Source: a virus (Duplodnaviria > Caudoviricetes). From it: a stretch of 64,000 nt of DNA. Made by a program: the position numbers and the translations under genes. The stretch is from positions 32,001 to 96,000 of IMG/VR virus record IMGVR_UViG_3300033075_001536, one strand, 5' to 3'. Positions 17,671 to 59,022 of the stretch are shown here, piece by piece; within the stretch, counting starts at the first letter, position 1; each line of letters opens with the position of its first letter. The notes under the pieces were generated by a model, which saw only the letters and a list, made by a program, of their open reading frames with translations, was not told where the DNA came from and did no database searches.

Positions 17671-17901
17671 ATGGAACATTATATCGCTTTTTATATAACA
17701 TTTATATTTTTTACATTTATTATTTTATTTGATTTATCACCAATTAATATTGTAAAATTTATTTGTAGAGATAAAAATACCACTTTTGGCATTTTGACTT
17801 TTGGTATCCATCAGTATAGAAAATATAAAGAGAAGAAACTTTCTGAAAGAAACACTTTACAATATATTAGGAATAAAAAATTAGAAAAAATTTTAAAATG
17901 A
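17671..17901 (+). CDS. Small membrane-anchored protein with C-terminal tag
   Basis: N-terminal TM helix; ends IRNKKLEKILK. Confidence 0.65.
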   Translation: MEHYIAFYITFIFFTFIILFDLSPINIVKFICRDKNTTFGILTFGIHQYRKYKEKKLSERNTLQYIRNKKLEKILK

Positions 17902-18137
17902 AAGAAAATAATACAATTATTGCTATAAAAAATAGTATAGATTTTTATATGGATAGTGGAAAAAAGATTTTATATTATTATAAATATGATAATTTTAAAG
18001 TTATAAGGACATTTTTTGGAACAGATGAAATATCGATTTTTAACCCGATTTTAAATGAAAAAATATTTGTAGATAGTAAAGATTTTATAACCTTATTCGA
18101 ATATAGAGATCAAAAATTAGAAAATATTCTAAAATGA
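17898..18137 (+). CDS. Small protein with C-terminal tag
   Basis: Ends YRDQKLENILK. Confidence 0.65.
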   Translation: MKENNTIIAIKNSIDFYMDSGKKILYYYKYDNFKVIRTFFGTDEISIFNPILNEKIFVDSKDFITLFEYRDQKLENILK

Positions 18138-18556
18138 AAAAAATAGATAATAATTTATTAGCAATTTCTAAAGCAATGTTGGTTGATAGAGATGACTGGC
18201 AATATGTTTCTGATGAACAAAAATCTACATTTTTCTTTATTACTTCTCGTTATTTAAGTAAGATATATCCAAAAGAATCTAAACTTTTGAATTCAAAATT
18301 AATAGATAAGGCTACAGGTATGGACATTTGGTTCCATTTTTTAAAAGATAAGCCTTATCCTAAATTGATGTGGTCTAAATCTGAAAAAGAAAAATCGGAA
18401 GATATTCCAGAAAAAGATTTCGAATTACTCTACGAAAAGCTTGGTCTAAATAAAAAAGAAGATCTAAATTTCCTAATAAATAGGTTTCCTGAATATATTG
18501 AAGAGGAATTGGATTATTATAAAAAACAATTAAAATCAAAAAAGAAAAATGGTTAA
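18134..18556 (+). CDS. Hypothetical protein, possibly T4 gp62-like clamp-loader small subunit
   Basis: FFFITSRYLS weakly resembles gp62-type motif; size fits; near RNase H. Confidence 0.35.
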   Translation: MKKIDNNLLAISKAMLVDRDDWQYVSDEQKSTFFFITSRYLSKIYPKESKLLNSKLIDKATGMDIWFHFLKDKPYPKLMWSKSEKEKSEDIPEKDFELLYEKLGLNKKEDLNFLINRFPEYIEEELDYYKKQLKSKKKNG

Positions 18557-19097
18557 AGAACAAAAAATGAGTTGGTATGTCATAAAGACACAATCAAACA
18601 AAGAAAGAAGTGTTGTAGAAAAATTAAACCTAGAAATGTCTAGAAGTAGTATTCAAGATAAGGTGGGTCGAATTGTCATTCCAACCGAAAAAGAGGTTCA
18701 GATTAAAGATGGTAAAAGAGTATTTAGAGAGAAAATTACCATGCCTGGATATGTTTTTATACAAACCGGTGCTATTGGTGAATTAACACATATCTTAAAA
18801 AATATAAACGGGACCTCTGGATTTTTAAGAACAAAGGATGGTAACCCACAAACGATGAAAGATATAGATGTTGCTAAAATGTTAAACGAGCAAGAATTAG
18901 TTGATTCTAAAGAGCTTAATTCTTCCTTCATTCTTAATGAAGAGGTTAAAATTATTGACGGGCCTTTTGCATCATTTAAAGGAAATGTTGAATTTGTGGA
19001 TAAAGATAGAAATAAAATAAGGGTCTCGGTTTCTATTTTTGGTAAAAAGACGATGCTTGATTTACACTTACTTCAAGTTGAGAAGGTAGAAAACTAA
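18549..19097 (+). CDS. nusG: Transcription termination/antitermination factor NusG
   Basis: WYVIKTQSNKE; MPGYVFI; KOW motif VKIIDGPFASFKG; VSIFGK. Confidence 0.93.
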   Translation: MVKEQKMSWYVIKTQSNKERSVVEKLNLEMSRSSIQDKVGRIVIPTEKEVQIKDGKRVFREKITMPGYVFIQTGAIGELTHILKNINGTSGFLRTKDGNPQTMKDIDVAKMLNEQELVDSKELNSSFILNEEVKIIDGPFASFKGNVEFVDKDRNKIRVSVSIFGKKTMLDLHLLQVEKVEN

Positions 19098-19098
19098 G

Positions 19099-19866
19099 AT
19101 GGCTAGATTTGGATCACTTATTGAAAAGGATAGGAAAATCTACGGAAATTGTCAAGTTTTATCACCTGATGGAATTCTTATGTTCAGATGTGATGATAAG
19201 AAATTAAATTGGTATCTAAAGAGAGATTTGGCCGAATTAGTGGAAGAGGATCCAAAAACAATTAAATTAAAATTTACTCCAAATGGTCTTGGTAATCATA
19301 ATAAGCAATATGGTCTCACCGTTATGGAAAACAAATGTGTTTGTTGTGGTGGTATAGAGTTTTTAACCCGTCACCATGTAGTGCCTTATTGTTATAGAAG
19401 ATATTTTCCAACCGAGATAAAATCACATAATTTTCACGATGTTTTATCACTTTGTGTGGATTGTCATGAGAAATATGAAGTATTCTCCTTTGAGAAAAAG
19501 AGAGAGCTAGCTAATATACACTCAGCCCCAATTAATGGGGATATTATTGATAATAAAGACATTATAAGGATGCGGAGAATTGCTTCTGGAATTTTATTTA
19601 ATTCTAATATCCCTGATAATAGAATTAGAGAAATGAAAAAAGAAATTAAAAATTTCCTTGGTTTGAAGAGATTATCTTTCAAAAAGATTAAACAATTATC
19701 TGATTTAGATATACCAATTTATAGTAAAACACATGGTGAAATGGTAGTTGCTAAGATTGAGAATCTACAAGAATTTATCCAAATGTGGAGAGAACATTTT
19801 ATAGAAAATTCAAATTGCAAATATTTACCAGATAACTGGAGCACAAAAAATGAATTTGGTAAATAA
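19099..19866 (+). CDS. HNH-type nuclease resembling the C-terminal domain of eukaryotic EXD2
   Basis: YGNCQVLSPDG...WYL...FTP.G...ENKCVCCG...RHHVVPYCYRRYFP...KSHNFHDVLSLCVDCH...WREHF...LPDNWS. Confidence 0.75.
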   Translation: MARFGSLIEKDRKIYGNCQVLSPDGILMFRCDDKKLNWYLKRDLAELVEEDPKTIKLKFTPNGLGNHNKQYGLTVMENKCVCCGGIEFLTRHHVVPYCYRRYFPTEIKSHNFHDVLSLCVDCHEKYEVFSFEKKRELANIHSAPINGDIIDNKDIIRMRRIASGILFNSNIPDNRIREMKKEIKNFLGLKRLSFKKIKQLSDLDIPIYSKTHGEMVVAKIENLQEFIQMWREHFIENSNCKYLPDNWSTKNEFGK

Positions 19867-20276
19867 TGGATGTTGATAAAGTTATAGAAATTTATAAAAA
19901 TTATAAACTAAGATGTTCCACTATCTTGGAAATGTCCAAATTGTACTATAAATATGAACAAAAATATATTCAAGACTCTCATCAAGAAATAAGAAAGGAG
20001 TTGGAGCTAAAATTTAAAGATGTTGATTTTAGAGAATTTACTAAAGAAACTTTAATAAAAGAATTTAATTTTGGACCATGGGATGACGATTTAGTGTTGT
20101 GTCCAATCTGGACAGATGGTTTAATAAAAGAGGGAACTGAGTTATATACCATTAGTGAAAATATGGTAATATATAAAAAGGGAGAGTTGAGTAATGACTC
20201 TAGATTTGGCTGCTTCTGTTACGGATTTAGAACATCTGATTTGAGGGACTACAAGTTAAAAAATTTAACAGAATAA
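19866..20276 (+). CDS. Hypothetical protein with C-terminal tag
   Basis: D.RFG...YG motif; ends LRDYKLKNLTE. Confidence 0.7.
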   Translation: MDVDKVIEIYKNYKLRCSTILEMSKLYYKYEQKYIQDSHQEIRKELELKFKDVDFREFTKETLIKEFNFGPWDDDLVLCPIWTDGLIKEGTELYTISENMVIYKKGELSNDSRFGCFCYGFRTSDLRDYKLKNLTE

Positions 20277-20277
20277 T

Positions 20278-20745: not shown

Positions 20746-20814
20746 GTAAAATAGTAAAAAATCGATTTTGGAATATAATATATATTATAATTAAAAAAAT
20801 AATTAGAAGCCAAA

Positions 20815-21219: not shown

Positions 21220-21247
21220 TTTTTATAAATTAAATTATTTTATATTT

Positions 21248-21287
21248 TTCACCAATTCCTGTAAAAAGAATTGGTGAATTTTTTTTT
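21248..21287 (+). terminator. Rho-independent terminator
   Basis: ttcaccaattc-N9-gaattggtgaa perfect 11-bp stem followed by T9. Confidence 0.85.
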
Positions 21288-21391
21288 ATTCTAATACATT
21301 CTCCAATTTTAAGTCTCTTAAAACTGATTTATTACTAATAACATCATTTATTTTCAAACTTACAATATGGACAAGTAAAATATCCCGGCAT
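21286..21391 (-). pseudogene. Deleted/frameshifted remnant of a CxxC protein with C-terminal tag
   Basis: MPGYFTCPYCKFENK* then, in a shifted frame, LKINDVISNKSVLRDLKLENVLE*. Confidence 0.55.
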
Positions 21392-21393
21392 AT

Positions 21394-21741
21394 TTAAAAT
21401 ATTTTTTCAGACTTTATCTCTATATCAACTAAATGGTTTTTTAAAAATTTTTCACGATTATGCCCTCCAATTGGCATTCCAGTTTTTGGACTAATAAATT
21501 GCCAACCATACTTACCATCTAAGTCTAAAAATTCTCTAACTCTATAATTCCCAGAGTGGATTGGATTAAATTTTAAAGCTTTATCATTTGATAAAATCAT
21601 TACCCTGTGTATTGGTCTGCGAACATATACCTCTAGTATACGAGTGGTTACTTTAGGATTTTTTTGACCAGACTTTCTTAATTCTCTTAGATGAGCTTTA
21701 TTTCCCTCACTACCATACCTAAAAATATCAATATGTTTCAT
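21394..21741 (-). CDS. Basic hypothetical protein
   Basis: ATG at 21741 lies 6 nt after a TAACTTTG element; ORF track start of 21750 is less likely. Confidence 0.65.
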   Translation of the reverse strand: MKHIDIFRYGSEGNKAHLRELRKSGQKNPKVTTRILEVYVRRPIHRVMILSNDKALKFNPIHSGNYRVREFLDLDGKYGWQFISPKTGMPIGGHNREKFLKNHLVDIEIKSEKIF

Positions 21742-21747
21742 TTTGAA

Positions 21748-21755
21748 CAAAGTTA
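21748..21755 (-). promoter_or_regulatory. Bacteroidota sigma-A -7 element (TAnnTTTG)
   Basis: TAACTTTG on minus strand upstream of 21741. Confidence 0.5.
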
Positions 21756-21801
21756 ATTATTAATTTCAACTTTTCAAAAATTATATATACATTTGTATAT
21801 A

Positions 21802-21847
21802 AGTTTGCCTCATTGTGTGTTTGAAGAGTGTGTTTGAGAGGTAAATT
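21802..21847 (+). other. Hairpin leader enclosing a 10-nt direct repeat
   Basis: tttgcctc/gaggtaaa stem; gtgtgtttga at 21815-21824 and 21828-21837. Confidence 0.55.
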
Positions 21848-21892
21848 CAAAAAATAATCCATTTATGGACGACCCTAGTTATTTAAAAACCA

Positions 21893-23079: not shown

Positions 23080-24348
23080 ATGAAATTGACAGGATACAAT
23101 GAATTTATTTTAGAGAACCAAATCGCAGAACTACTAGTGGAATCACAAATTGTTTATTCGCAGAAATTTCTTAACCTATTAAACACTATGGGTAGAACTC
23201 CAATAGTTCCTAAACTATTGACACTACAATCACAAGATAAAGAAATTCAACAAAATTATATTGATGTTGGTGGTGCTAAAGACACCGTCACTTTCACACC
23301 AGAAAGAAAGGTTAGAGAGCTAACTGGCAATAGAAATATTGTCTATGTTAGACAAGGAACTGGTGGGTGTTTAAGTCACATGAGTCGAAATCGATTTATT
23401 TTTGGAAGACTTGGATATACACCAGAGGGTGGATACATTACTGATGAGACACAATCACCACACTACAAACCACAAGAAGGAGAAGTTGGTAAAATTGTTG
23501 CTACTACACAAGGTATTAAAGCTCCCATTCAGACCTATGTCTTATTTGAGTGTACCGAAGGTGCTAATAAAGGTAAACAGTGTGTTATTAATAGAAGAAA
23601 GTTGAATGAAAGAGATGATACCTTTTCACAGATTTGGACAACTCAAAGAAATTCAATTAAAGTTGGAAGACTTGCAAGAGCTTTGATAACTCTACTCGGA
23701 GAAACTGTTACTGATGCTCAAGTAGAAGACTTTGTAAACAAATACAAATCTGCCTATGATGTAATGAATGATGCTTTCTCAAGATTTGATATTGTCGAAG
23801 GAAATAAAATTGCTTACTGGTATAACTATGAAAGATATGAGGATGAAAATGAAGGTGTTTTAGGATCTTCTTGTATGAAAAATGCTAGTTCTAGTTGGCT
23901 TAAAATTTATACAAAAAATCCAGAACAATGTAAATTAGTAATTTTGTATTCTGATGCTGGATCTATTGTGGATGGTAAATTTAAATCTGAAAAGATTAGA
24001 GGAAGAGCAATTCTATGGAAAACAGATCAAGGTGATATGTTTATGGAAAGAATCTATACCAAAGATGATTCTGATGTTGATTTATATAAACAATTTTGCT
24101 TCCACAATGGTTGGTGGTGTAGAACTCGTCAACAATATGGAACCGAATTCCAAGTTGAGAATGGTCACCAAACCAAAACAGCTCAATATGTAGTTACATT
24201 AGCAGAGTGTGATTTTAATCACTATCCATTTGTTGATTCTCTATGTTATTTGAATACATCAACTAAGAAAATATCCAATGTTCGGAGCTTAGTCTCTCCA
24301 GATAGAGTTATACAAAATACGGGTGGTGGATATAGTCCGTGTAGATAA
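23080..24348 (+). CDS. CTS-like-tagged protein of the SCM/RA(I/L)LW/M(D/E)RIY phage family
   Basis: MKLTGYNEFILEN; LGSSCM; GRAILW; FMERIY; YPFVDS; paralog of 44495..46162. Confidence 0.8.
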   Translation: MKLTGYNEFILENQIAELLVESQIVYSQKFLNLLNTMGRTPIVPKLLTLQSQDKEIQQNYIDVGGAKDTVTFTPERKVRELTGNRNIVYVRQGTGGCLSHMSRNRFIFGRLGYTPEGGYITDETQSPHYKPQEGEVGKIVATTQGIKAPIQTYVLFECTEGANKGKQCVINRRKLNERDDTFSQIWTTQRNSIKVGRLARALITLLGETVTDAQVEDFVNKYKSAYDVMNDAFSRFDIVEGNKIAYWYNYERYEDENEGVLGSSCMKNASSSWLKIYTKNPEQCKLVILYSDAGSIVDGKFKSEKIRGRAILWKTDQGDMFMERIYTKDDSDVDLYKQFCFHNGWWCRTRQQYGTEFQVENGHQTKTAQYVVTLAECDFNHYPFVDSLCYLNTSTKKISNVRSLVSPDRVIQNTGGGYSPCR

Positions 24349-24781: not shown

Positions 24782-25666
24782 ATGGTAAAAGAAAAGAAGA
24801 TTTCAGCTCGACCTTACGAGCAAACAATGATTAAGCCTCTAGATTTTGACAAAATGACTCAAAAATTAAGAGGTTTTTTTATGCCACTTGGCTTTAAAGA
24901 AACATTTCCACAACCTAGAGTATCTATTCTAGCAGCCTGTGAGGATCCAAAAACAATTAGAAAGTACACATTTTCTGGAACAGAATGGCCTCTCATTCAA
25001 ACCAATCAAATGTGGTTAGAACATGACATTTTAAAAGAACCAGAATTGGAAGGTGTTTTTTGTTTATCTACCTCATATAGAGACGAGCCAAATCCAATAG
25101 AAGGAAGACACAATAAAATATTCCCAATGTTTGAAGCGGAGCACCTTGGAGATTACGAACATTTATTAAAAACATTATCAGACTTATGTGTTCACCTAGG
25201 ATTTGTCAAATCAACAAAAGATATTCCATTTTTTACTTATGATGAGCTTTGTGAAAAATATGGAACTTTAATACTTGAATCTGAACACGAAACAAAAATG
25301 TGGGAGGAGTATGGTGATGTGGTTGCAATCACACATTTCCCTCAACGAACAAGTCCATTTTGGAACATGAAATCAATTGGCAAAAATAAACACGGTGAAA
25401 AAATATATGCAAAATGTGATTTCATTATTTGTGGACAAGAAACCATTGGATCTGCTGAAAGAGATACAGACATTGAAACGATGAGGAAAAATTTCCATAC
25501 TATTTCTGGTGGGGAATATGCTAAAATTTTGTTTGATCAATTCTCAGAGGAAAGAGTAGAGTCAGAACTAGAAGACTTCTTTAGTTTACCAATGGTTGAG
25601 AGATGGGGATTTGGGATGGGACTTACAAGACTTCATAGAGCTTTAAAAATTAAAAATCTGATTTAA
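24782..25666 (+). CDS. Class IIb aaRS catalytic-core paralog (Asp/AsnRS-like; archaeal-type asparagine synthetase AS-AR-like), no anticodon-binding domain
   Basis: Motif 2 YRDEPNPIEGRH..IFPMFEAE; ETIGSAER; motif 3 GFGMGLTRL; only 294 aa. Confidence 0.85.
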   Translation: MVKEKKISARPYEQTMIKPLDFDKMTQKLRGFFMPLGFKETFPQPRVSILAACEDPKTIRKYTFSGTEWPLIQTNQMWLEHDILKEPELEGVFCLSTSYRDEPNPIEGRHNKIFPMFEAEHLGDYEHLLKTLSDLCVHLGFVKSTKDIPFFTYDELCEKYGTLILESEHETKMWEEYGDVVAITHFPQRTSPFWNMKSIGKNKHGEKIYAKCDFIICGQETIGSAERDTDIETMRKNFHTISGGEYAKILFDQFSEERVESELEDFFSLPMVERWGFGMGLTRLHRALKIKNLI

Positions 25667-25680
25667 TCAGGTTTTTTTTT
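25652..25680 (+). terminator. Possible weak intrinsic terminator
   Basis: ctgat-tta-atcag hairpin followed by T9. Confidence 0.45.
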
Positions 25681-25693
25681 GTGAATATTTTAA

Positions 25694-25792
25694 TGTTGGG
25701 TGGTGAAATTGGCAAACACACCGTACTGTCTATACGGCATGGATAAAGGAATAAAAACCTCCATATACATCGTTCGAATCGTGTCCCAACAG
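25694..25792 (+). tRNA. Atypical tRNA-Asp(GTC) with long variable arm
   Basis: Acceptor TGTTGGG/CCCAACA with G73; D arm GTG-AAATTGGCAAA-CAC; anticodon stem CCGTA/TACGG with loop CT-GTC-TA; extra arm ATGGA...TCCAT; TTCGAAT T-loop with bulged T-stem; no encoded CCA. Confidence 0.8.
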
Positions 25793-25830: not shown

Positions 25831-26487
25831 ATGAAACCATTGTTTGATATCAATGATTATAAGAATATAAAATGTTTAGAATTTGAATGTGAATTTTGTG
25901 GAAAGTCATTTGCTCCTTTAAGGAGAAATGCAATACAATCTATTCGTAAAGTTCAAAATGTTCAATTCTGTTCTACTATTTGTAGAATAAATGCTCGTGT
26001 AGAAAAAATAGAAATACCTTGTTCTAATTGTAATAAATTGGTGTATAGAACAAGCTCACACTTTAAAAAAAGCAAAAATAAACGGGCTTTTTGCTCAAAA
26101 TCTTGTTCAGCAATTTATAATAATACCCATAAAGCCTATGGAACAAGACGAAGTAAATTAGAAGCATGGATAGAAAAGAATTTAAAAGATAGATATAATT
26201 TTGAAATAATATTTAACGGAAAAGAAGAAATTAATAGCGAGTTAGATATTTTTATACCGAGTTTAAAATTGGCATTTGAATTAAGCGGAATTTTTCATTA
26301 CGAGCCAATTTATGGAATTGAAAAATTAAATATGGTAAAAAATAATGATAATAGAAAATTTCAAGCTTGTTTAGAAAAAGGAATAAAATTGTGTATAATT
26401 GATACTTCAAATAGTAAAAAATTTAAACCAGAAAGAGATAAAAAATATTTAAATATTATAGAAAAAATAATAGACTCAAAAAATTAA
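25831..26487 (+). CDS. Zn-finger plus PD-(D/E)XK (Vsr/DUF559-like) putative homing endonuclease
   Basis: CEFC/FCS..C repeats; ELDIFIPSLKLAFELSG..HY; late box upstream. Confidence 0.8.
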   Translation: MKPLFDINDYKNIKCLEFECEFCGKSFAPLRRNAIQSIRKVQNVQFCSTICRINARVEKIEIPCSNCNKLVYRTSSHFKKSKNKRAFCSKSCSAIYNNTHKAYGTRRSKLEAWIEKNLKDRYNFEIIFNGKEEINSELDIFIPSLKLAFELSGIFHYEPIYGIEKLNMVKNNDNRKFQACLEKGIKLCIIDTSNSKKFKPERDKKYLNIIEKIIDSKN

Positions 26488-29093: not shown

Positions 29094-30992
29094 TTATTCT
29101 TTTACTTCTTCAAAAGTAGCATCTTGAACATTTTCAAATCCACCATTTGGATTCTCTGTGGTTTGAGGATCTTGTTGAGTGGTTTGTGTATTCTGATACA
29201 TTTTTGTGGAAATAGAATTCCAAGTTTCGGTTAACTTTTGTGTTGAAGAGTCGATAGAAGATAAATCTTTTGACTCATAAGCTTTCTTTAAATCCGCTAA
29301 AGCATCCTTTAGACTTGATTTATCTGATTCACTTAATTTTTCATCAAATTCCTTGATCTGCTTTTCAGTTGAAAAGATAAGATTGTCAGCTTGATTTAGC
29401 TTTTCAATTTTTTCTTTTTCTTGACGATCAGATTCAGCATTATCTTCAGCCTCCTTTTTCATACGAGCAACCTCTTCTTTTGAAAGTTGAGATCCACCTT
29501 CAATGCGAATTCTATTTTCTTTAGAAGTTGCCTTATCCTTTGCGGTAACCGATAGAATACCATTAGCATCAATGTCTAATGAAATTTCAATTTGTGGAAT
29601 ACCTCTTGGAGCTGGCATAATTCCTTCTAAGTGGAAACGACCCAAAGAACGATTGTCTTTAGCCATTGGTCTTTCACCTTGAAGAACATGAACCTCAACC
29701 GATGGTTGATTGTCAGAAGCAGTTGAGAATGTTTCTGATTTTTTGGTTGGAATAGTTGTGTTTGCTTCAATTAATTTGGTAAATACCCCACCCATCGTTT
29801 CGATACCAAGTGATAGTGGTGTTACATCAAGTAGCAAAACATCAGTAATATTTCCAGTTAAAACCGCCCCTTGAATAGCTGCTCCGATAGCAACTACCTC
29901 ATCTGGGTTAACAGATTTATTTGGTTTTTTACCAAAGAACTTTTCAACAGCTTCTTGAACAGCTGGAATTCTTGTAGAGCCACCTACTAAAATTACTTCT
30001 TCGATTTCAGATAATTTAATATCTGCGCTCTTGATAGCTGATTTGCAACATTTGATCGTTCTATCTACTAAAGCAGATGTCATTTGATCAAATTTAGCTC
30101 TTGTTAGAGTCTTTACATAGTGTAGTGGAACACCATCTAAAGCAGTGATATAAGGAAGATTGATCTCAGATTGTGTTGTTGAGGACAATTCAATCTTAGC
30201 TTTTTCAGCAGCCTCCTTTAATCTTTGAAGAGCCATTGGATCTTTTGAAAGGTCCATGTTGTGCTCTGATTTGAACTCAGAAACCATCCAATTAATAATT
30301 TCGTTGTCAAAGTCATCCCCACCAAGGTGTGTATCACCATCAGTTGATTTAACTTCAAATACTCCATCACCAATCTCTAGAACAGATATATCGAATGTTC
30401 CTCCTCCAAGATCATAAACGATAATTTTCTGATCTTTTTCTTTCTTATCAAGTCCATAAGCAAGTGCCGCAGCTGTTGGCTCATTGATAATTCTTTCCAC
30501 TTTAAGTCCAGCAATTTGACCAGCTTCAATAGTTGCTGTTCTCTCAGCATCACCGAAATAGGCTGGAACAGTGATAACTGCACGAGTTACTTCATGTCCT
30601 AAATAATCTTCAGCAGTTTTCTTCATTTTTTGAAGAATCATAGCTGAAATTTCTTGTGGGGTGAAGGTTCTATCACCAATTTCAACAGCTGGAACATTTT
30701 TTCCAACCTTAACTACTTTATACGGAACTCTTTTAATCTCATCCGAACAATGAGAAAAATCTTTTCCAATAAATCGCTTGATCGAATAAACTGTTTGTGT
30801 CGGGTTGGTAACAGCTTGTCTCTTTGCTGGATCACCAATTTTACGATCCTTATCAGTGAATCCAACTACTGACGGAGTTGTTCTTTTTCCTTCCGAATTT
30901 GTGATGATGATTGGTTCTCCATTCTCAACAACCGCAACAGCGCTGTTAGTGGTCCCCAAATCAATTCCCAGAATTACATTTTCTTTTGCCAT
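29094..30992 (-). CDS. dnaK: Chaperone DnaK (Hsp70)
   Basis: GIDLGTTNS; TVPAYF; DLGGGTFD; LVGGSTRIP; NPDEVVA. Confidence 0.98.
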
Positions 30993-37946: not shown

Positions 37947-40900
37947 TTATTGAAAAGATGAATTTTCTACAACTCCATTATACCAAATACCACCATTGAA
38001 ATGTGAATTGTCAAGAATTCCATTGGTCCAAATACCAGAATCAAATATTGCGTTCGTCCATTTACTAACCACTCTAAGTCCAGTATTTGTATTGCTTATA
38101 TTAATACCTAATGGAAAAGGTGTAAAAGATTCATAACTTAATTTAACATCTATAACAATGTGTGTGTTCTCACCTTCTTCTAAGACAAACAAAGCTTTGC
38201 ATCTCCTTGGACTGTCATTACTTCCAAGAGGAGAGTATGAATTATTAACTTCATTATCTATGATCCAAAATTCATCACCCACATTAAATTTAAATATTCC
38301 GTTTAGTGTGATATAATTTGAAAAAGTATTTCCATATAAACTAGAAGTTGCTGAATTTATACCAATAAGTTGGATATCTTCTAGAATTCCTCCTCTCCAT
38401 TCACCTCCTTTAAAGTCAATGTTATAAGCAATTCCTCCCCAGAAATCTCCACTTCCCCAGAATCCAGTTCTCCAAATGGAATATTTATGAATATCCGAAA
38501 CAATTGGAAATCCATTTTCATCTAAATTAAGTTGTGAATGGAATTGACCATTTAACCATTTACCACCATGCCATGTAGATGTTCTGGAGTTATATGATTT
38601 GGTTCCAAATCTAGAAATCTTTCCATATTTTTGATCAAATAGCCCATCATACCACATACCATTTTCAAAATCTCCACCATACCATTTACCATCTAACCAA
38701 TAAGAAGGTGTGTTGTCTGTATTAAATAAACCATCTTTCCATGTTCCATTTACCCAAATACCACCAGAAAATTCACCATCTTCCCATGTTCCGTTATTCC
38801 AAATACCATTATACCAAATACCATTTGACCATGTTCCACCATATGATCTTCCATAGTACCATGTACCGTCTTTCCATTCTCCATCAAACCAACGACCATC
38901 ATACCATTTTGAGAAAGAAGAATCACTTGGTGTAGCAACACTTTGTTGTATAATCATTGGATTGACTATATTCAAAGATTTGGATTCCCATGTTCCTCTA
39001 TACCAATCACCACCTAACCATGTTCCGCTTAACCAATGTCCACCAAACCAACGACCACAGTTCCATATTCCTTTATACCATTGAATATTTTTATTAGAAT
39101 CTAGTCCAATAATAGCATCTTTTATTTCAGCATCTAATATCCAAGGATACTTATTAGTGATATCAGCAAATGTTAGTCCATCTGTTAATTGATAGCAATA
39201 CTTACTCATATCAACATCAATTAAATTATATTTAGATCCATCCAATTCATAATTTTCTGGATCTATTTTAACAGATTGTTTTGCAGTTGATGGTCCTTGT
39301 CCGATATCAAAAATATTGATTGGTTGGAAATTTAAAAATGGATCTTTTTGTATGAATGTTACAGAACCATAATCAGTCACAGTAGCTGGTAATCCGTACG
39401 GAATTTTTATATAAAAATCTTGTGTATTAATAGGATACGCTACATGATATCCCATATATTGTTGATTTAGTTCCTCGGAAGATCCAGGTCCGCCAGTCAT
39501 GCTAATGACCACACCATCTCCAGTTCCGATATGATGACTGTTTGAACAGTTAAATAGAACCCATGTATTTGAACCATCTATATAGAAGTTAGTATTTGTA
39601 ATAGGTGTGATATATTCAATTTCTAATTTAGTAATATCAAGAGCAAGTTCATTTTTGTAATCCACATATACTAAACCAGAAAGATCTTTAACAAATTGAT
39701 CGTCCGATAAAAATGCCTTAGCATATGAGTCAGTTGGTATTTTGAAATTAATATCTGTTTCATAATTTGTGTATGAATATAAACTTTCTATACTCTTAAC
39801 TTGATCTTTATTTCTATGAAGAGTATTTAAATATTGTAAGTCATCAGAAATTTCTTGCAGTGTTCTTCTGGTTCTAATTTGGACTTGGTTAGCATACAAA
39901 GGTATATCCAACATTTTGTGGAATTCAATGACATACCAATCATAAGTCGAATCATAATATTTATCCATCACTAATAATTTTTCAGTAGTGTGTATAGATA
40001 AATCTGTTGCTTCGATAGAAACATCCACAAATGTCCATTTTAAGATGGATGTCCATTGGTCCTTTAGATTTTTACCAAAGAATAATTTATTTGCCCATTT
40101 TGGATTAGCTGATGCGAATTCAGTATAAATATTAGAATCAGTTGCTCCTGTAAATGATCCGTAGTAGGTTCCAGGCATTGGTCCGTAAACTGGTAGTGAT
40201 GAAAGTTCCCTGGTTGGAAAATAATTATTATAATTTAAACTTGATAAATAATCCAATAAATTATAAGTTGGGTTATATCCAAATTGGAAAAAACTAAATG
40301 AATATCTCATCTCAAAATTATTCGAACCAATTTCGATTCCAGTTTGTAGATTATAATAACTACTAAAATTAGTAAATCTAGGAGAAATGGTTATCTGACC
40401 ATCTCTTGAGAAATATAAATTTTGAATTTTATTAGATGGTGATTGTAACTCCAATAATAGATTATTTTGATCAATAAATGAATAGGTATATGTGCTTACT
40501 GGATAAGTATCTGTATATGGGGCATTTTGTATAGTTAATGTATTTGTTCCATAAGATATTGTCTCTGTTCCAGATGAGGGTGTCAATAAGCTTATATTAA
40601 CATCATTTTGTGTAAATGACCAAGTACCACCAATAAATATTCCATTTGAATTGAGTAATGAAAAAGTAGTCTCGCAATTATATGGAACCGGAACAACAGT
40701 GTATGGAAACAATGGTGTTATTATAAAATCATAACATATTCTATTTAAATTCCATACACCTCCCCACTGATTTGTCCATACATTACTATCATTTATACCA
40801 TAATCAATAGTTGCTTTATAAGCATGATGTGCTGGATGTAGATTGAATTTATCAACAAATTCCTGGTATCCGTTATTTGAATATTTGTTCAAATTACTTA

Positions 40901-43424
40901 TTCTAACTGGAGATTTTGTTAAATTGTTTAGTATATTTTGATTAAAATCTGTATAAATATATTGATAGTAGGTAGTCACTCCCATAGATACATTCTTAAT
41001 AATTTTATTAATCATTAAAACCGCTTCTACACAATCAGACGAAATATTCACCATATCACCAACTTCTGGTGGGTTATTCACATCGGTGGTACTAAGTGCC
41101 CAAATTAAAAGATAATCATAAGCATATATCGAGTAGGAATTATTTGGAAAAATAGTGCCTCCTGTATCAATATATCTAGATTGTGTAGATATATCTATAT
41201 TTGGTGCCATCTGAATGATATCTAATAAATTAGTAGAAATAGAGGGTGTTGCATACTCAAATGTTCCATTACAAATATCTGAATAAGAGAATGTAAAATT
41301 TGGTTCGACCTTATAAACATCATCCATGTGTGTGTAATATTCAAAGGTCTTGGATCTATCTTTCCAATAAGTTACCCAATTGCTCTCAGTCACCGAAAAT
41401 GGAACATTACTCTGTGTTAGATGTGTGAACTCTAAGAAGGAACTATCCAACATGGATGCAGTAAATGTGATAGTGTTTGGTAGCCTATATTCACCCAAAT
41501 CATCAAAGAAATTTAATTTAGAACCAATATCATAATCCATGAATAATAGTCTAGATTTTAGTCTATTGTCATAGTTTACATCTATACTTTCTTTTAAATA
41601 GAGGCTTTGTGATGATCCTGTGTATCCATAAACAGAAAATAATGATTTTTCTCCGGTGATTATTAGATCTTCTGATTCAAAATTAGATATTGAGTTTGGA
41701 GAAAAATCACCAACTTTCGACACTGTTCCTAATTGATAAAAAACATTAGAAAAGACCGAACTAGTTAAAGAAAATAAGCTAAGATCTAACATATATGTCC
41801 CATCATAAGAAGATAAATATATTATTCCATCACCAGGTGAATCTATTGAATTAATATCTCCTATATTTGGAGATATAGTTGGGCAGATAAAATTGAATCC
41901 ATAGTAATTTGTCGTATCATATAAAAATATTGTATTGTTATTACAAACAATAGCTATTGTCGAATCATTTGCATTATATTTATCAACATAAATATCATTT
42001 ATATTTTCCACTAAAATATATTCATCATCAATTGAATTAAATTTTGATATTCTTCTTTTATAAGAGATCCAAGTTCCGTGGTCATAAGTTAGTTCCAAGA
42101 ATACACCAGTGTCTCCACCAATGAAGATTTTATCTACCTTAGGGTATAAAACAACATTATAGTTAAAGGATTCAAATTCTCTAACATCAATTTTTGTCCA
42201 ATTATAACCACCATCATCTGTAACATAAATTATATTATACTTACCAACCACTACTCCTCTACTCTCATTATAAAAATCAATTGAATTTAATCGAGTGAGA
42301 ACTCCTATTTCTATTCTTTTGATAGAGAAATCTATTTTAGAAACCCTTAAAAGTGTCCCGTAGTCCCCACATATCCAGTAATAGTTATTGGTTTCGACAA
42401 TTGACTTTAATAAAACTTTATATTTATTTTCTATAATTGTTGGAGCACCTTCTTGATAGTTGGTGATTATTCCAAACTCACCAACTGCAATGGTTCTATT
42501 TGGTATTGAATAAGTCACACCATCTAAATAGATAGATTGTGTGGCATGTTTGATAACATCTTGGTAAGATATTTCAAATAAATTATTATAATCGACTTGA
42601 TTTCTTAAAACATAATTATGACCTTCTTTAAATTCAATAGGTTGTGATAGAGATGTAGTTGGGAAATACCCATCTAATAACCTAGATAAATGAAATTGCT
42701 TTTGTTTATTTATATTTCCAAGTTTAGATAAAACAGAGTATTTTATACAGACATCGTAATTATCGAGTTCAGGATCTCTAACTAGTTTATTTCCTTTATA
42801 AACATAAATTCCATTTTCAGAAGTATAATAAGAATAAACTGTTTCTAAGCTATTGGTTGAATAGACATAGTAATTTGATTTGAAATAAGTCTCTGGATCA
42901 GTTGAATTTGGTAAAGTAACATAAGCAATCTGGTCTTTCACTAAAACACGATGTCCTTCAACTAGTTTTATTCCATCAATTGTTAAATTTATTTTCACTA
43001 CACCAATGATATCAATTAACATTTCTGTGGTAGTAACATCTACTGTATAGTAGTTTTCTACTGAATCAGACAACAACCTTTTTGGAGTGAAAAGTGTCTT
43101 CATGGTTAAGCCATCTTCGGCTAGAAATTGATCATAATATTCAAAAATACTTGATCCATCTATTTTAACCTTATTAGCTTGAACAGGGATATATGGCATT
43201 GGAGTTGAATAGGTAATACCCACATACCAGGTTCTAGGCACATACTCACTCAAAATGTTATAAATATCATCAAATCCATTAATAGAATTATAAAGAGCTC
43301 CACTCAAACATTTTTGGTAGAGTCTGTATGATGACATATCTCTCTTCCAAGATGTAAAATTAAACTCGGTAAGTGAGTCTATTTGTGATGACCATTTTCC
43401 GGTATCCTCGTTTCTTATCCACAT
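37947..43424 (-). CDS. Giant putative tail/baseplate protein with beta-propeller repeats and W-x-x-G pentapeptide repeats
   Basis: VLVKDQ...ENGIY module; G..G.I/TDDGGYNW BNR-like blades; long W(Y/N)xGxW repeats near the C-terminus; 1825 aa. Confidence 0.7.
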   Translation of the reverse strand: MWIRNEDTGKWSSQIDSLTEFNFTSWKRDMSSYRLYQKCLSGALYNSINGFDDIYNILSEYVPRTWYVGITYSTPMPYIPVQANKVKIDGSSIFEYYDQFLAEDGLTMKTLFTPKRLLSDSVENYYTVDVTTTEMLIDIIGVVKINLTIDGIKLVEGHRVLVKDQIAYVTLPNSTDPETYFKSNYYVYSTNSLETVYSYYTSENGIYVYKGNKLVRDPELDNYDVCIKYSVLSKLGNINKQKQFHLSRLLDGYFPTTSLSQPIEFKEGHNYVLRNQVDYNNLFEISYQDVIKHATQSIYLDGVTYSIPNRTIAVGEFGIITNYQEGAPTIIENKYKVLLKSIVETNNYYWICGDYGTLLRVSKIDFSIKRIEIGVLTRLNSIDFYNESRGVVVGKYNIIYVTDDGGYNWTKIDVREFESFNYNVVLYPKVDKIFIGGDTGVFLELTYDHGTWISYKRRISKFNSIDDEYILVENINDIYVDKYNANDSTIAIVCNNNTIFLYDTTNYYGFNFICPTISPNIGDINSIDSPGDGIIYLSSYDGTYMLDLSLFSLTSSVFSNVFYQLGTVSKVGDFSPNSISNFESEDLIITGEKSLFSVYGYTGSSQSLYLKESIDVNYDNRLKSRLLFMDYDIGSKLNFFDDLGEYRLPNTITFTASMLDSSFLEFTHLTQSNVPFSVTESNWVTYWKDRSKTFEYYTHMDDVYKVEPNFTFSYSDICNGTFEYATPSISTNLLDIIQMAPNIDISTQSRYIDTGGTIFPNNSYSIYAYDYLLIWALSTTDVNNPPEVGDMVNISSDCVEAVLMINKIIKNVSMGVTTYYQYIYTDFNQNILNNLTKSPVRISNLNKYSNNGYQEFVDKFNLHPAHHAYKATIDYGINDSNVWTNQWGGVWNLNRICYDFIITPLFPYTVVPVPYNCETTFSLLNSNGIFIGGTWSFTQNDVNISLLTPSSGTETISYGTNTLTIQNAPYTDTYPVSTYTYSFIDQNNLLLELQSPSNKIQNLYFSRDGQITISPRFTNFSSYYNLQTGIEIGSNNFEMRYSFSFFQFGYNPTYNLLDYLSSLNYNNYFPTRELSSLPVYGPMPGTYYGSFTGATDSNIYTEFASANPKWANKLFFGKNLKDQWTSILKWTFVDVSIEATDLSIHTTEKLLVMDKYYDSTYDWYVIEFHKMLDIPLYANQVQIRTRRTLQEISDDLQYLNTLHRNKDQVKSIESLYSYTNYETDINFKIPTDSYAKAFLSDDQFVKDLSGLVYVDYKNELALDITKLEIEYITPITNTNFYIDGSNTWVLFNCSNSHHIGTGDGVVISMTGGPGSSEELNQQYMGYHVAYPINTQDFYIKIPYGLPATVTDYGSVTFIQKDPFLNFQPINIFDIGQGPSTAKQSVKIDPENYELDGSKYNLIDVDMSKYCYQLTDGLTFADITNKYPWILDAEIKDAIIGLDSNKNIQWYKGIWNCGRWFGGHWLSGTWLGGDWYRGTWESKSLNIVNPMIIQQSVATPSDSSFSKWYDGRWFDGEWKDGTWYYGRSYGGTWSNGIWYNGIWNNGTWEDGEFSGGIWVNGTWKDGLFNTDNTPSYWLDGKWYGGDFENGMWYDGLFDQKYGKISRFGTKSYNSRTSTWHGGKWLNGQFHSQLNLDENGFPIVSDIHKYSIWRTGFWGSGDFWGGIAYNIDFKGGEWRGGILEDIQLIGINSATSSLYGNTFSNYITLNGIFKFNVGDEFWIIDNEVNNSYSPLGSNDSPRRCKALFVLEEGENTHIVIDVKLSYESFTPFPLGINISNTNTGLRVVSKWTNAIFDSGIWTNGILDNSHFNGGIWYNGVVENSSFQ
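38390..39080 (-). repeat. Coding pentapeptide repeat (W/F)-x-x-G-x
   Basis: WYKGIWNCGRWFGGHWLSGTWLGGDWYRGTW...WSNGIWYNGIWNNGTWEDG; degenerate 15-nt periodicity. Confidence 0.8.
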
Positions 43425-47812: not shown

Positions 47813-48031
47813 TTAATCCACATTCTTGTGATTTATACCAAATTTAACATATTTATACCAAAATCTTTCGTGTAGGAAATAAATAATTGGTTTTATTACC
47901 AATTCTATTATTGAGAAGCTAAAGCCAATTAAGGCACTTCCTGTAACAACATATCCAATGAAAAAAGACGCAATAGAAGATATTATTCTATAAGTTATTG
48001 TTTTTAAAAAGTGTCTTTTAATGTGAACCAT
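47813..48031 (-). CDS. DUF2061 family membrane protein
   Basis: RHFLKTITYR...K..IYFLHER.W. Confidence 0.85.
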   Translation of the reverse strand: MVHIKRHFLKTITYRIISSIASFFIGYVVTGSALIGFSFSIIELVIKPIIYFLHERFWYKYVKFGINHKNVD

Positions 48032-48281
48032 CTATTATCTCCCTTAGATTTCTATCTCTAATTGTCTTTAGAGTTGGTTTGATATTTTCTATCCTTGTTC
48101 CAAATTTTTGTCCAAAGATATTCTGCTTAATGATTATACCTTGTTTATACATTCCATAGTCTGATTGCCACAAGCTCTCTATTTCAACCTCGGTTCCTTT
48201 TAAAAAAATTACTTCACCATAACTACCCATAATATCATCTAGTAAAATAACAGTTTCTCCTATACTATACGGATTTTCCAT
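48018..48281 (-). CDS. Small protein with C-terminal tag
   Basis: Likely start MENPYSIG at 48281; ends IRDRNLREIIDGSH. Confidence 0.65.
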   Translation of the reverse strand: MENPYSIGETVILLDDIMGSYGEVIFLKGTEVEIESLWQSDYGMYKQGIIIKQNIFGQKFGTRIENIKPTLKTIRDRNLREIIDGSH

Positions 48282-48477
48282 TTTTCTTTTTAATGTACTC
48301 TTCAATTCCTCGAATAAATAGCTCCTTAATAACAGATTCGCAGGTATATGTCTTATCATAATAGTACTCTATATTGGAGACAACATTAGCCATACCAACC
48401 CAATAAAGGTCTTCTTTATCAAATCCACGAAATTGTATATTTCTTTCGTTTAAAAGTTGGTATAACTGATGCTTCAT
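48265..48477 (-). CDS. Hypothetical protein
   Basis: Downstream of uvsX, coupled to next gene. Confidence 0.6.
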   Translation of the reverse strand: MKHQLYQLLNERNIQFRGFDKEDLYWVGMANVVSNIEYYYDKTYTCESVIKELFIRGIEEYIKKKNGKSV

Positions 48478-52865: not shown

Positions 52866-52881
52866 TTATTATCTTAGCTAT

Positions 52882-53451: not shown

Positions 53452-53454
53452 ATT

Positions 53455-53916
53455 ATGAATCCAAAAATGAAACCCATGGTTATTGAACTAATTGATAACC
53501 TATGTTCAGATACCGACACAGATGATTTAAAATGGAAGGAAGAAACCTTTTCTTCTAATAGAAGAAAAGAGAGATATTATTCTTGTGATTTATCTGGAAC
53601 CAAAGTTCAGGTTCGTGTGGAAATAAAAGAAGATCTATCTATGGGTGGAGGATGGATGTCTGTTGAGGATCCAAATTTAAGTGAAAGAATACTTGCCTTT
53701 GAGGTAGAGGTTCCTACCGTTAAGAAAATAGTAGGTGTTCTTTATAATAAATTTGTTTTACCCGAAAAAGTTAAAATACAACAAAAGGATGAAAGTGATT
53801 TGAAGACTATGGGTAATATTCTTGGAAAAACATCAATAAAAAATAAAAGAGATCGTAAACTAGGAGAGATTTTAGGAGACAATATTGTAGATAAAATAAA
53901 AGGTATTTTTAAGTAA
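53455..53916 (+). CDS. Hypothetical protein with near-C-terminal tag
   Basis: KRDRKLGEILG. Confidence 0.7.
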   Translation: MNPKMKPMVIELIDNLCSDTDTDDLKWKEETFSSNRRKERYYSCDLSGTKVQVRVEIKEDLSMGGGWMSVEDPNLSERILAFEVEVPTVKKIVGVLYNKFVLPEKVKIQQKDESDLKTMGNILGKTSIKNKRDRKLGEILGDNIVDKIKGIFK

Positions 53917-53918
53917 TA

Positions 53919-56243: not shown

Positions 56244-56273
56244 ATACTATATATTAAAATTTTCAAGTAAAAA

Positions 56274-56762: not shown

Positions 56763-56826
56763 TACTTCTCTATTGAACTTTTAGCAAAAAATCCATACAA
56801 TAGAAATTAAAAATAAAAATAAATTA

Positions 56827-57303
56827 ATGAAAAATTTTGTAACACAAAGGGGATATAAACAGTTGTTAGATCAACTAACAAACTTAAAAACAGTAGAATT
56901 TAAAAACTGTGTGAATGCTTTAACAGATGCTCGTGATAAGGGTGATATATCAGAAAATGCTGAATATGAAACTGCCAAAGAAGCATTTGATAATATTAAC
57001 AATAGAATATCTGAACTAGAGAATAAAATAAAAAACTCATCTATAATTTCATCAGCTGAAATAGATACTGATTCCGTTGGTATTTTATCTACGGTAAAAG
57101 TTAAAAATAATACTTACAACAAAGAGCAAAAATTTACTTTAGTTCCGGATAATGAAATTGATATAAAACTAGGTAAGATTTCTTACAATTCGCCTATCGG
57201 GGCTGCTTTAATTGGTAAGAAAGTCGGAGAATCTTTAAAAATAAAAGTTCCAAGTGGTGAGTTAAATATGGATGTGATTGAAATTACTGCTGAATATGTT
57301 TAA
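56827..57303 (+). CDS. greA: Transcription elongation factor GreA
   Basis: ARDKGDISENAEY; ISYNSPIGAALIGKKVG. Confidence 0.95.
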   Translation: MKNFVTQRGYKQLLDQLTNLKTVEFKNCVNALTDARDKGDISENAEYETAKEAFDNINNRISELENKIKNSSIISSAEIDTDSVGILSTVKVKNNTYNKEQKFTLVPDNEIDIKLGKISYNSPIGAALIGKKVGESLKIKVPSGELNMDVIEITAEYV

Positions 57304-57313
57304 AAGATAAAAC

Positions 57314-57604
57314 ATGAACTACATAGAAACGAATCTTTATGATCTTATTAAGGAAAAAATTAAAGACTATAAAGGATACACTCTTTTTGAAATAAAGGAT
57401 AATGATCATATGGTAAATATTTTTCATTTTGAAACTAAAGAGGAATTTGATAATAATTTTGAAATGGTAAAACACGGATATTATCCAGGAAAATTTCCTC
57501 GACCTAAAAATATAACTAAAAGTTATGGGGATAGTGTTGAATGTTTAATAGATGGTGAGGAACATTATATTAATTTACGAAATTTTTATTTAGAGGTGGT
57601 ATGA
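57314..57604 (+). CDS. Hypothetical protein
   Basis: ORF in operon. Confidence 0.65.
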   Translation: MNYIETNLYDLIKEKIKDYKGYTLFEIKDNDHMVNIFHFETKEEFDNNFEMVKHGYYPGKFPRPKNITKSYGDSVECLIDGEEHYINLRNFYLEVV

Positions 57605-57936
57605 AAATAGAATGTATCTTTAGAGGAAAGAATTCACTCGGATATGAAAATGGTAAAAAATATAACCTATTCGTAGATTCCATTTCTATGTCAGGAACCT
57701 TTACTATTCAAGATACCAATCCTGTGTATGTACAAAAAGGCCAAAGATGTGAATATTCAAATATAAGAAGTTTTACTAATAATTGGGAAATCACAAATAC
57801 CGAATATGATCCAAGTTTGTATCTTGGAAAAGATGATAGTCATAGATTAATAAAAAATAACTATAATAAATATATCCAGGAAACATTTGGTAAATATATA
57901 CGAGACAAAAAATTAGAAAAGATTCTAAGTGAATAG
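57601..57936 (+). CDS. Hypothetical protein with C-terminal tag
   Basis: Ends IRDKKLEKILSE. Confidence 0.7.
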   Translation: MKIECIFRGKNSLGYENGKKYNLFVDSISMSGTFTIQDTNPVYVQKGQRCEYSNIRSFTNNWEITNTEYDPSLYLGKDDSHRLIKNNYNKYIQETFGKYIRDKKLEKILSE

Positions 57937-58192
57937 AATTCAAAATATACATGAAGATATTCTAAAAAGACAACTTGATTTAGAAAGACTTCTTAAATTA
58001 CCTAAAACAAAATCTGATTTAATTTTAAAGTTATTTGATGATTTAATGGACTCTTTTAAAGATGGTAAATTTTCTCCTTCTACGGGTCAGTCAATGGATA
58101 TAAATCGTTTGGTTATTTTATATAATACTTTGGTAGATGAAGGTTGGTTAGTGACAAGAAGAGAAAAGAATTTAAATAAATTAACAGAGTAA
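57929..58192 (+). CDS. Hypothetical protein with C-terminal tag
   Basis: Ends RREKNLNKLTE. Confidence 0.65.
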   Translation: MNRIQNIHEDILKRQLDLERLLKLPKTKSDLILKLFDDLMDSFKDGKFSPSTGQSMDINRLVILYNTLVDEGWLVTRREKNLNKLTE

Positions 58193-58213
58193 TATTATAC
58201 TATATGTTATATC

Positions 58214-58405
58214 ATGATGTTGCAGCTTTTTATGAATGAGTATATAACAAAAGATGTTTTAAAGGATGTTGTTAAAGAACTTAACAAAGGATTTAAAGGA
58301 TGGCAAACCACTTTTTGTCAGAAGTGTGGTTTGGATTTACCAGGATATGGAATCTACTGTGTTCAGTGTAATAGAGACGAAAATATAAAAGAGATATTAA
58401 AATGA
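58214..58405 (+). CDS. Zn-ribbon protein with C-terminal tag
   Basis: CQKC...CVQC; ends NRDENIKEILK. Confidence 0.65.
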   Translation: MMLQLFMNEYITKDVLKDVVKELNKGFKGWQTTFCQKCGLDLPGYGIYCVQCNRDENIKEILK

Positions 58406-58788
58406 AAATTTCATTTGACTTTGATGGTACGATCTGGGACGAGTTTGACAAAACTCCGAATAGACAAAAAGATGAAATTGGTCGAATTTGTAAAGATTAC
58501 ATTCGCAAAGGACATGATGTTTATATTATAACAAAAAGGTGGGGACCTAAATTTAGAAATGAGGGTTTAAAAAACGAATGTGATATTGTCTATCAAGTTG
58601 GATTATCACTTGGAATAAAAAAGGAAAATATAATATTTACTGATCGATTGTGGAAAGATGTGACTATTAAAAATTTAGGAATTGAGATGCACTTTGAAAA
58701 TTCAGATATGGAAGTTAAAATGATTGAAAAGTTAGGAGTTAAAGTTGTTCCTGTGGAAGATCCATATTGGAGAGATTTGGTTTATTAA
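58402..58788 (+). CDS. HAD-superfamily hydrolase-like protein
   Basis: ISFDFDGT; IIT.R; K; HFEN. Confidence 0.8.
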   Translation: MKISFDFDGTIWDEFDKTPNRQKDEIGRICKDYIRKGHDVYIITKRWGPKFRNEGLKNECDIVYQVGLSLGIKKENIIFTDRLWKDVTIKNLGIEMHFENSDMEVKMIEKLGVKVVPVEDPYWRDLVY

Positions 58789-58789
58789 T

Positions 58790-59022
58790 ATGAAATGCTA
58801 TTGTAAAAAAGTTGGAAAATTTTCAAAGGATCGAATTCTATAATTTTTAATCATGGACAGGAGTATGAATATAGTATAGGTGAACATGAAGAAACAAATA
58901 TTTTGGTATATACAATTCACAATAAAATGGATATTTTACCAGTGGTAGAGTCAAAATTTAGAATTTATTTTGATGATGCTAAGGAAAGAAGAAATAAAAC
59001 ATTAGAAGAGATTTTAAAATAG
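58790..59022 (+). pseudogene. Small gene frameshifted in an A6 run (real lesion or sequencing error), with C-terminal tag
   Basis: One extra A at 58805-58810 gives MKCYCKKSWKIFKG...DDAKERRNKTLEEILK*. Confidence 0.65.

Follow-up and report, generated by a model that had tools for sequence, protein, structure and literature searches.

Many small and otherwise unrelated proteins of a huge T4-like phage end in the same short motif, R-[DNE]-x-K-[LI]-x-x-[IV]-L, which is fixed in position relative to the stop codon and is most commonly followed by a single residue. The stretch of DNA in which this C-terminal tag was noticed, here called the window, is 64,000 bp long and comprises bases 32001-96000 of a 170,678-bp IMG/VR virus contig (G+C ~29%; CheckV completeness 78%). 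The tag is a real and strong feature across the clade to which this phage belongs. It is read here, with moderate confidence, as a short linear docking handle at the C-terminus of accessory proteins that are not of the late class.

The closest named relatives of the contig are the uncultured huge phages LR756502, LR745206 and LR756504 (635-642 kb). T4-type genes on the contig include RNase H/FEN and RNA ligase, and a gp23-type capsid protein is seen in the relatives; NusG, GreA, ClpP, DnaK, DnaJ and GrpE are also encoded on the contig. A simple gene call gave 236 genes, and 228 called proteins entered a composition test in which no motif is assumed. Six related genomes were fetched whole and their genes called in the same way. 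The resulting seven-genome set holds 3,763 called proteins and includes LR756502, LR756504 and the genomes designated G001, G003, G004 and G005, of which the last three are 95%, 94% and 86% complete.

The initial annotation had described a shared C-terminal motif on about ten small proteins of the window. All ten cited motifs were recovered in a six-frame regular-expression scan of the window, and the phenomenon is far larger than had been claimed; only the C-terminal placement of one site, in the open reading frame (ORF) at 53455, does not stand, as 13 residues trail the motif there. Over the whole contig, 14 of 21 six-frame matches lie no more than two residues from a stop codon, and a position matrix built from the matches finds 20 C-terminal carriers against 3 internal matches among the called genes. 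The enrichment over background that had been suggested as a check is also found when no motif is assumed. Arg at position -10 occurs in 21 of the 228 proteins, with 8.9 expected (p = 2.7e-4), and Lys at -7 in 41, with 22.6 expected. The same composition test anchored in mid-protein gave no comparable excess of Arg or Lys.

The excess is larger in the relatives, where Arg at -10 is found in 121 proteins of LR756502 against 34 expected (p = 2e-32), in 73 against 20 in G001, and in 44 against 14 in G003. LR756504 seemed to be free of the tag under a strict DNA pattern, yet it uses a variant, RxxKIxxLL followed directly by the stop codon, and 110 of its proteins have Arg at -9, where 29 would be expected. 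Thus there is no tag-free relative in the set, and for this reason phylogenetic profiling gave no lead to the reader. At several loci LR756502 shows a local variant, K-L-x-x-[LI]-G-I before the stop, in place of I-L-x. In the seven genomes 271 of the 3,763 proteins match the C-terminal regular expression, compared with 1 and 1 when the same proteins are shortened by 20 or 35 residues as negative controls. When up to ten residues are allowed after the motif there are 345 carriers, or 9.2% of the proteins (7.6-11.7% per genome). In six of the genomes the number of trailing residues is 0 in 37 cases, 1 in 114, 2 in 51 and 3 in 28, and the counts then fall. The last residue of the tag is Lys in 26% of cases, Asn in 22% and Asp in 18%. 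A strict DNA pattern for R-D-x-K-L-x-x-I-L-K-stop matched 11 IMG/VR contigs; 10 of these are AT-rich jumbo-phage contigs with several tagged ORFs each, almost all with one trailing residue.

Apart from the tag, the carriers have little in common. An all-against-all BLASTP comparison of the 20 contig carriers with their tags stripped gave a best E-value of 0.05, and the 345 carriers of the seven genomes fall into 261 BLAST families, 209 of them singletons; this bears out the claim that the carriers are unrelated. They are small (median ~105 aa vs ~165). Pfam and PHROGs scans of 166 carriers yielded essentially no family, and none of the 20 contig carriers rises above the Pfam cut-off. The bodies are varied and include transmembrane segments, zinc ribbons, beta-rich and all-alpha proteins, as well as fragments of capsid protein, nucleotidyltransferase and ClpC. 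Among these fragment-plus-tag genes, which are conserved copies, one carrier of 79 aa matches part of a nucleotidyltransferase of 280 aa at 75% identity, a second, of 178 aa, corresponds to a piece of a gp23-type capsid protein, and two tagged mini-proteins mimic the UVR motif of the ClpC M-domain (mini-genes at G004 95277-95516, LR756504 472629-473165, LR756502 320919-321134 and G003 194233-194529). These would fit, without proving it, a design in which a variable binder is joined to a constant handle.

Orthologous carriers show that it is the amino acid sequence of the tag that is conserved. The codon for the Arg (R1) differs in 36 of 101 orthologue pairs (median body identity 45%), and of the 73 pairs with an unchanged residue at position 5, 41 use different codons for it. 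Since synonymous codons vary freely between orthologues, selection acts at the protein level. In 43 tags the codon usage for Arg, Asp, Lys and Ile equals that of the genome; all three stop codons occur, and Ile, Leu and Val interchange at conserved positions. Most of the seemingly untagged homologues of carriers retain the motif, with a longer extension or in a local variant (such as KLNKLGI before the stop). Thus orthologues keep the tag while their bodies diverge.

The pattern of constraint is that of a helix. With R1 as position 1, the constrained positions 0, 1, 4, 5, 8 and 9 share one helix face, which presents Ile or Leu at 0, R1, K4, Leu or Ile at 5, I8 and L9, which makes the tag basic in its N-terminal half and hydrophobic in its C-terminal half. 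The facing positions x3, x6, x7 and x10 are variable and nearly always polar; hydrophobic residues occupy x6 in 1% of tags, x7 in 5% and x10 in 6%, compared with a background of 37%, and position 0 in 55%. A helix cap is the probable role of the Asp, Asn or Glu at position 2. The most conserved tagged family (G000 14567-15100 and four orthologues, 178 aa) was modelled with AlphaFold, at a predicted local distance difference test (pLDDT) score of 84.6. In this model a folded body leads through a low-confidence linker of ~15 residues to a terminal helix (residues 158-177) that bears the tag. The body has no fold match in the PDB. The amphipathic C-terminal helix that had been proposed for these proteins is thus supported by the periodicity, the codon data and the predicted model of one family.

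The tagged genes also belong to a distinct gene class. A second tag of this phage, the N-terminal M-K-x-[IL]-K-x-F-E, was recovered without bias and marks 310 proteins. Both tags are found together on 1 protein, against 28.4 expected (Fisher p = 1.8e-12). A late-type box was scored wherever the octamer AATATATA or TAATATAT occurred in the 60 nt before a gene. The N-tagged genes have such a box in 47% of cases and other genes in 22%, compared with 1.4% for the C-tagged genes. Where the upstream gap is at least 40 nt, the values are 69%, 31% and 3.3% (p = 1.8e-7). A box TAATATATA(G/A) stands 25-30 nt before the start of gp23-type capsid genes in LR756504 (183588-185279), LR756502 and G003, and from this position the TAATATATA box is most likely a late promoter. 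The carriers had been said to lack the N-terminal tag and to lie away from late boxes, and both statements agree with these counts; with the exclusion of one tag by the other and the avoidance of the box, it is fair to describe the tags as two labels that exclude each other and mark two expression classes.

The carriers share operons with genes for replication, transcription and chaperones, where they occupy variable syntenic slots between conserved genes and are non-homologous from genome to genome. The slot that extends from RNase H to a conserved 140-aa gene beside NusG holds two carriers in this contig, one unrelated carrier in LR756502 and none in LR745206. The 140-aa protein itself (window 18134-18556, + strand) is present in 7/7 genomes, always between RNase H and NusG, and has no Pfam or PHROG match. 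The slot from GrpE to DnaJ holds 0 to 2 carriers. This slot was considered as a link to Hsp70 and dropped, as it is empty in LR756502 and other gene pairs show similar variable tagged fillers.

In the window, the first two carriers are adjacent genes on the + strand. A 76-aa protein of membrane type (17671..17901) ends in YIRNKKLEKILK, with the motif at 17869-17895, and a 79-aa protein without a Pfam match (17898..18137) ends in EYRDQKLENILK, with the motif at 18105-18131; the latter overlaps the next gene through the sequence ATGA. A 136-aa carrier (19866..20276, +) ends in DLRDYKLKNLTE (motif 20244-20270) and has a tagged orthologue in G001 that is 33% identical. Each of these three has one trailing residue. 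The model of the 136-aa carrier is poor (pLDDT 46.6), and the helix that it shows for the last 13 residues is not usable as evidence. On the - strand, a 118-aa ORF (21394-21750) ends in TAA and is followed by 35 in-frame codons (21286..21750 in all) that lead to a perfect tag, VLRDLKLENVLE, with the motif at 21292-21318 and one trailing residue. To judge from the reading frame, this may be either a tagged gene that was (recently) truncated, or a stop codon that is read through to give tagged and untagged forms.

Further along, a 113-aa carrier on the - strand (48018..48359) ends in TIRDRNLREIIDGSH, with the motif at 48033-48059 and 4 trailing residues. The 153-aa protein with the sub-terminal motif KRDRKLGEIL is encoded at 53455..53916 (+; motif 53848-53874). 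Four carriers on the + strand follow. The first is a 111-aa orphan (57601..57936) that ends in YIRDKKLEKILSE, with the motif at 57901-57927 and 2 trailing residues. It is its own sole homologue among 5.8 billion sequences, and a search of the ESM Atlas with its last 24 residues (88-111) superposed only generic plain helices. The others, all with one trailing residue, are an 87-aa protein (57929..58192; TRREKNLNKLTE; motif 58160-58186), a 63-aa zinc ribbon with a weak DZR match (58214..58405; CNRDENIKEILK; motif 58373-58399) and a micro-ORF (58927..59022; ERRNKTLEEILK; motif 58990-59016). The zinc ribbon and the membrane-type protein at 17671-17901 are thus present among the carriers, as named in the initial annotation. 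The micro-ORF lies within a 71-codon open frame and has 31 aa from the first ATG, its start being uncertain. A convergent gene follows it and therefore no translational coupling takes place there.

Two other proteins of the window have ends that resemble the tag. The 151-aa protein at 16209..16664 (-) ends in QINRDRNL, with its stop codon within the tag-like motif, and its N-terminus (MSKIIKKFKLFEN) is similar to the N-terminal tag; by its sequence, the end is possibly a decayed C-terminal tag. A 218-aa zf-FCS protein (25831..26487, +) has a weak tag-like end, ERDKKYLNIIEKIIDSKN, and is a doubtful member. Elsewhere in the window, a 1825-aa ORF (37947-43424, -) is conserved in five relatives and has no Pfam match.

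In the explanation favoured here, the handle would be an amphipathic alpha-helix of two to three turns at the extreme C-terminus, acquired independently, within a clade of huge T4-like phages, by small accessory proteins of over 260 unrelated families, all outside the late class. The fixed face of the helix would insert into a groove, hydrophobic and acidic at its rim, on a single common partner. Each carrier, whatever the target of its own body, would thus be recruited to the same putative reader. Both the docking and the existence of a single reader are inferred from the properties of the tag. Several points weigh against this explanation. The sole confident model covers one family, and that of the carrier in the window is poor. 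About one quarter of the carriers tolerate 4-10 extra residues, which counts against it in part; a free C-terminus is therefore not required, which fits docking and weakens the comparison with a degron that is read by a protease pore. In addition, gene overlap and an excess of TTA codons, described below, leave room for a nucleotide-level or translational constraint near gene junctions.

As to the reader, the DnaK/DnaJ/GrpE of the clade and a ClpC that lacks the N-terminal domain are no more than candidates. The leading guess, possible though not probable, is that the reader belongs to the Clp/Hsp70 proteostasis machinery of the phage or the host, and that the tag is a timed degron or a tether for adaptors. 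The phage encodes a DnaK/Hsp70 at window 29094..30992 (-), together with a class-A DnaJ (G000 23218-24264, -) and a GrpE (G000 25264-25704, -). DnaJ is found in 7/7 genomes, and DnaK and GrpE in 6/7 each. The phage DnaK was dropped as a specialised reader, as it is ~80% identical to very many DnaKs in the databases. Hsp70 binds extended peptides, not helices.

More specifically, the tag could serve a Clp-type AAA+ protease as a degron or as a tether for adaptors, the protease being either the phage ClpC without N-domain acting with ClpP, or the host enzymes. The tag would then bring about the timed removal of marked early proteins, or plug target-binding mini-proteins into the protease. This alternative is rather unlikely. 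ClpP (in the window at 5917..6639, -) is found in 5/7 genomes and ClpC in 5/7, and each genome has at least one of the two. However ClpP is absent from the tag-bearing G003 and G004, by Pfam search and by tblastn. The phage ClpP is therefore not an obligate reader, and the proposal that the tag is a degron for it fails as an obligate link.

ClpC offers a lead. It is a protein of ~710 aa, encoded at L150:7826-9991 (G004) and L084:5157-7289 (G003) and also in G001, LR756502 and LR756504. It lacks the N-terminal domain that binds adaptors and retains the M-domain and the VGF loop for docking to ClpP (E = 4.5e-238 to B. subtilis ClpC); a short N-terminal peptide, itself conserved, precedes an acidic run. 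ClpC is the most conserved of the shared proteins (83-93% identity vs a median of 54%), and it falls within a large, tight family of ~710-aa proteins that is widespread in metagenomes, partly on contigs of several hundred kb. A conserved gene of 115-133 aa, without a Pfam family, abuts ClpC upstream (L150:7417-7815 in G004, and orthologues). It has an internal tag-like helix, RRDEIIDELLN, followed by 11-13 residues, and its sequence and position suggest that it may be an adaptor. The two tagged mimics of the UVR motif also point to ClpC. On the other hand, ClpC was not found in this contig (78% of the genome recovered) or in G005 (86%). The periodicity of the tag is helical, whereas known Clp signals are bound as extended peptides, and the usual last residue of the tag is Lys, Asn or Asp, i.e., not non-polar.

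There is also a more far-reaching form of the proteostasis reading. The tag would be the common handle of a modular library of adaptors, in which variable bodies bind different targets and the helix plugs into one remodelling or degradation machine under phage control, such as the ClpC without N-domain acting with ClpP, or Hsp70. In some adaptors the body would be a conserved mimic of part of the capsid protein, of a nucleotidyltransferase or of the ClpC M-domain. The whole would be a phage counterpart of the F-box/PRANC families and would serve the early destruction or disarming of proteins of the host or of rival phages. As a joint claim this is distinctly unlikely.

It is quite improbable that the tag is a localisation signal into an assembly built by the phage (the prohead or another shell), i.e., a second cargo address beside the N-terminal tag. 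A terminal amphipathic helix behind a flexible linker, as in the model of one family, would suit such a signal, as would the mutual exclusion with an N-terminal tag that resembles a capsid-targeting sequence and the presence of capsid-protein pieces among the carriers. However the late-type box of the capsid genes is avoided and the carriers lie in replication, transcription and chaperone operons. The packaging of ~10% of the proteome in addition to the ~8% that is N-tagged also seems excessive.

The sliding clamp is unlikely to be the reader, and a clamp-binding tail that tethers small proteins to the replisome or the DNA is a very improbable explanation of the tag. The spacing of the motif is similar to that of the PCNA-interacting peptide (PIP) box, D-x-K-L-x-x-I-L compared with Q-x-x-L-x-x-F-F, with hydrophobic residues at 1, 4 and 5, a polar residue three before the first hydrophobic one, basic flanks and an extreme C-terminal location. 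The aromatic pair of the PIP box is however missing. The family-B DNA polymerase, which is seemingly split into two genes (C-terminal half at G000 137865-139361, -, and in relatives), ends in LSVVMDIFGG(E) or FTLSLF. These ends are like the clamp-binding tail of T4/RB69 and unlike the tag, which argues against the clamp-binding reading, and the carriers are orphan mini-proteins rather than DNA enzymes. No significant match to PF09116 or PF02768 (the gp45-type and beta-type clamps) was found by Pfam, and a PHROGs scan of the conserved core proteins was also negative; a diverged phage clamp, or the clamp of the host, could still be present.

Equally, it is highly unlikely that the tag is its own reader, with the helices zipped into homo- or hetero-oligomers or into a common assembly. 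The helix is amphipathic, with hydrophobic residues at a/d-like positions and charged flanks. But the conserved hydrophobic positions span only ~1.5 heptads, and a strictly invariant Arg together with a conserved Lys on the core face would be unusual for a coiled coil.

That the motif is an element of the gene junction at the nucleotide level is extremely unlikely. Such an element could serve translational coupling or re-initiation, a pause of the nascent peptide at termination, or recombination as a linker for cassette shuffling. The location of tagged genes in variable slots between conserved genes would suit such an element. Overlap with the downstream gene is found in 47% of tagged genes compared with 22% of others, TGA is somewhat enriched among the stop codons of the tags (15/43, vs 19% genome-wide), and among the Leu codons TTA is in excess. 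Set against this are the free synonymous variation at conserved residues and the interchange of Ile, Leu and Val. In addition, 42% of carriers have no gene on the same strand that starts within 5 nt, and in 16% of carriers the next gene lies on the opposite strand, as in the carrier that ends at 59022; all three stop codons are used, and up to 10 trailing residues are tolerated. Finally, the view that all carriers are paralogues from a single diverged family, with the motif as the end of their common domain, has nothing in its favour apart from the common tail and can virtually be discounted, as it is already contradicted by the diverse bodies, the number of families and the tag-stripped comparison, which left no pairwise similarity outside the tag.

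No description of the tag was found in the published literature, and a search of IMG/VR for related NusG loci found none. The additions of the present analysis are the seven-genome statistics, the variant of LR756504, the exclusivity of the two tags with the dichotomy in promoters, the evidence against ClpP and the clamp, and the lead to a ClpC without N-domain. If the tag is indeed a docking label, about one tenth of the proteome in a whole clade of huge phages has one destination. The carriers are several hundred dark proteins without other annotation, and identification of the reader would open a first way to their function. It would also throw light on how new accessory genes become functional, as a ten-residue tail encoded by AT-rich sequence is easily evolved. 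Together the C-terminal and N-terminal tags would define two exclusive classes of proteins tied to two expression programmes. The tag peptide is a ready affinity bait, and possibly a portable tag for hosts of the Bacteroidota type.

The tag can be compared with several known systems. The capsid targeting sequence (CTS) of phage T4, which the N-terminal tag of this phage resembles, is likewise a short terminal address peptide common to many unrelated proteins of one phage. The T4 CTS is however N-terminal, is carried by late proteins and is removed by the prohead protease. In contrast, the tag described here is C-terminal, its genes avoid late-type boxes, and it is practically never found with the N-terminal tag. 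The signals read by Clp proteases, i.e., ssrA, the C-terminus of MuA and the ClpX-binding tail of SspB, are similarly read as tags of ~10 residues at the extreme C-terminus. The present tag is portable, as its 261 families show, and the clade has Clp components. The Clp signals are bound as extended peptides and their last residues are non-polar or specific, whereas the tag is helical in period and has an invariant Arg nine residues upstream of its last residue, which is polar and variable. Nor are the phage Clp genes universal among the tag-bearing genomes.

A short C-terminal helix with 1-4-5 spacing and basic flanks, by which many clients bind one hub, is also known from the PIP box and from the tails of gp43, gp33 and gp55 in T4 and RB69. 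Clamp-binding patterns are Q-x-x-[LIM]-x-x-[FY]-[FY] or the T4-type S-L-D-F-L-F, and the replicative polymerase is the canonical client of the clamp. The consensus found here, R-D-x-K-[IL]-x-x-I-L, differs in its lack of an aromatic pair. The polymerase has another, T4-like tail, no clamp gene is recognised in the scans described above, and the carriers are not DNA enzymes. The peptides that target unrelated proteins to one encapsulin or microcompartment shell resemble the tag as terminal amphipathic segments behind a flexible linker (predicted for the 178-aa family). Their cargos are enzymes that are co-expressed with the shell, whereas the carriers are orphan mini-proteins of non-late class. 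The ankyrin proteins of poxviruses plug into a host machine by means of a C-terminal F-box-like PRANC domain. The constant module of the phage proteins is a helix of ten residues, not a domain, and their bodies are mutually unrelated, but the arrangement is alike in that a variable, target-binding body would be joined to a constant C-terminal module, and the fragment-plus-tag mini-genes fit this comparison.

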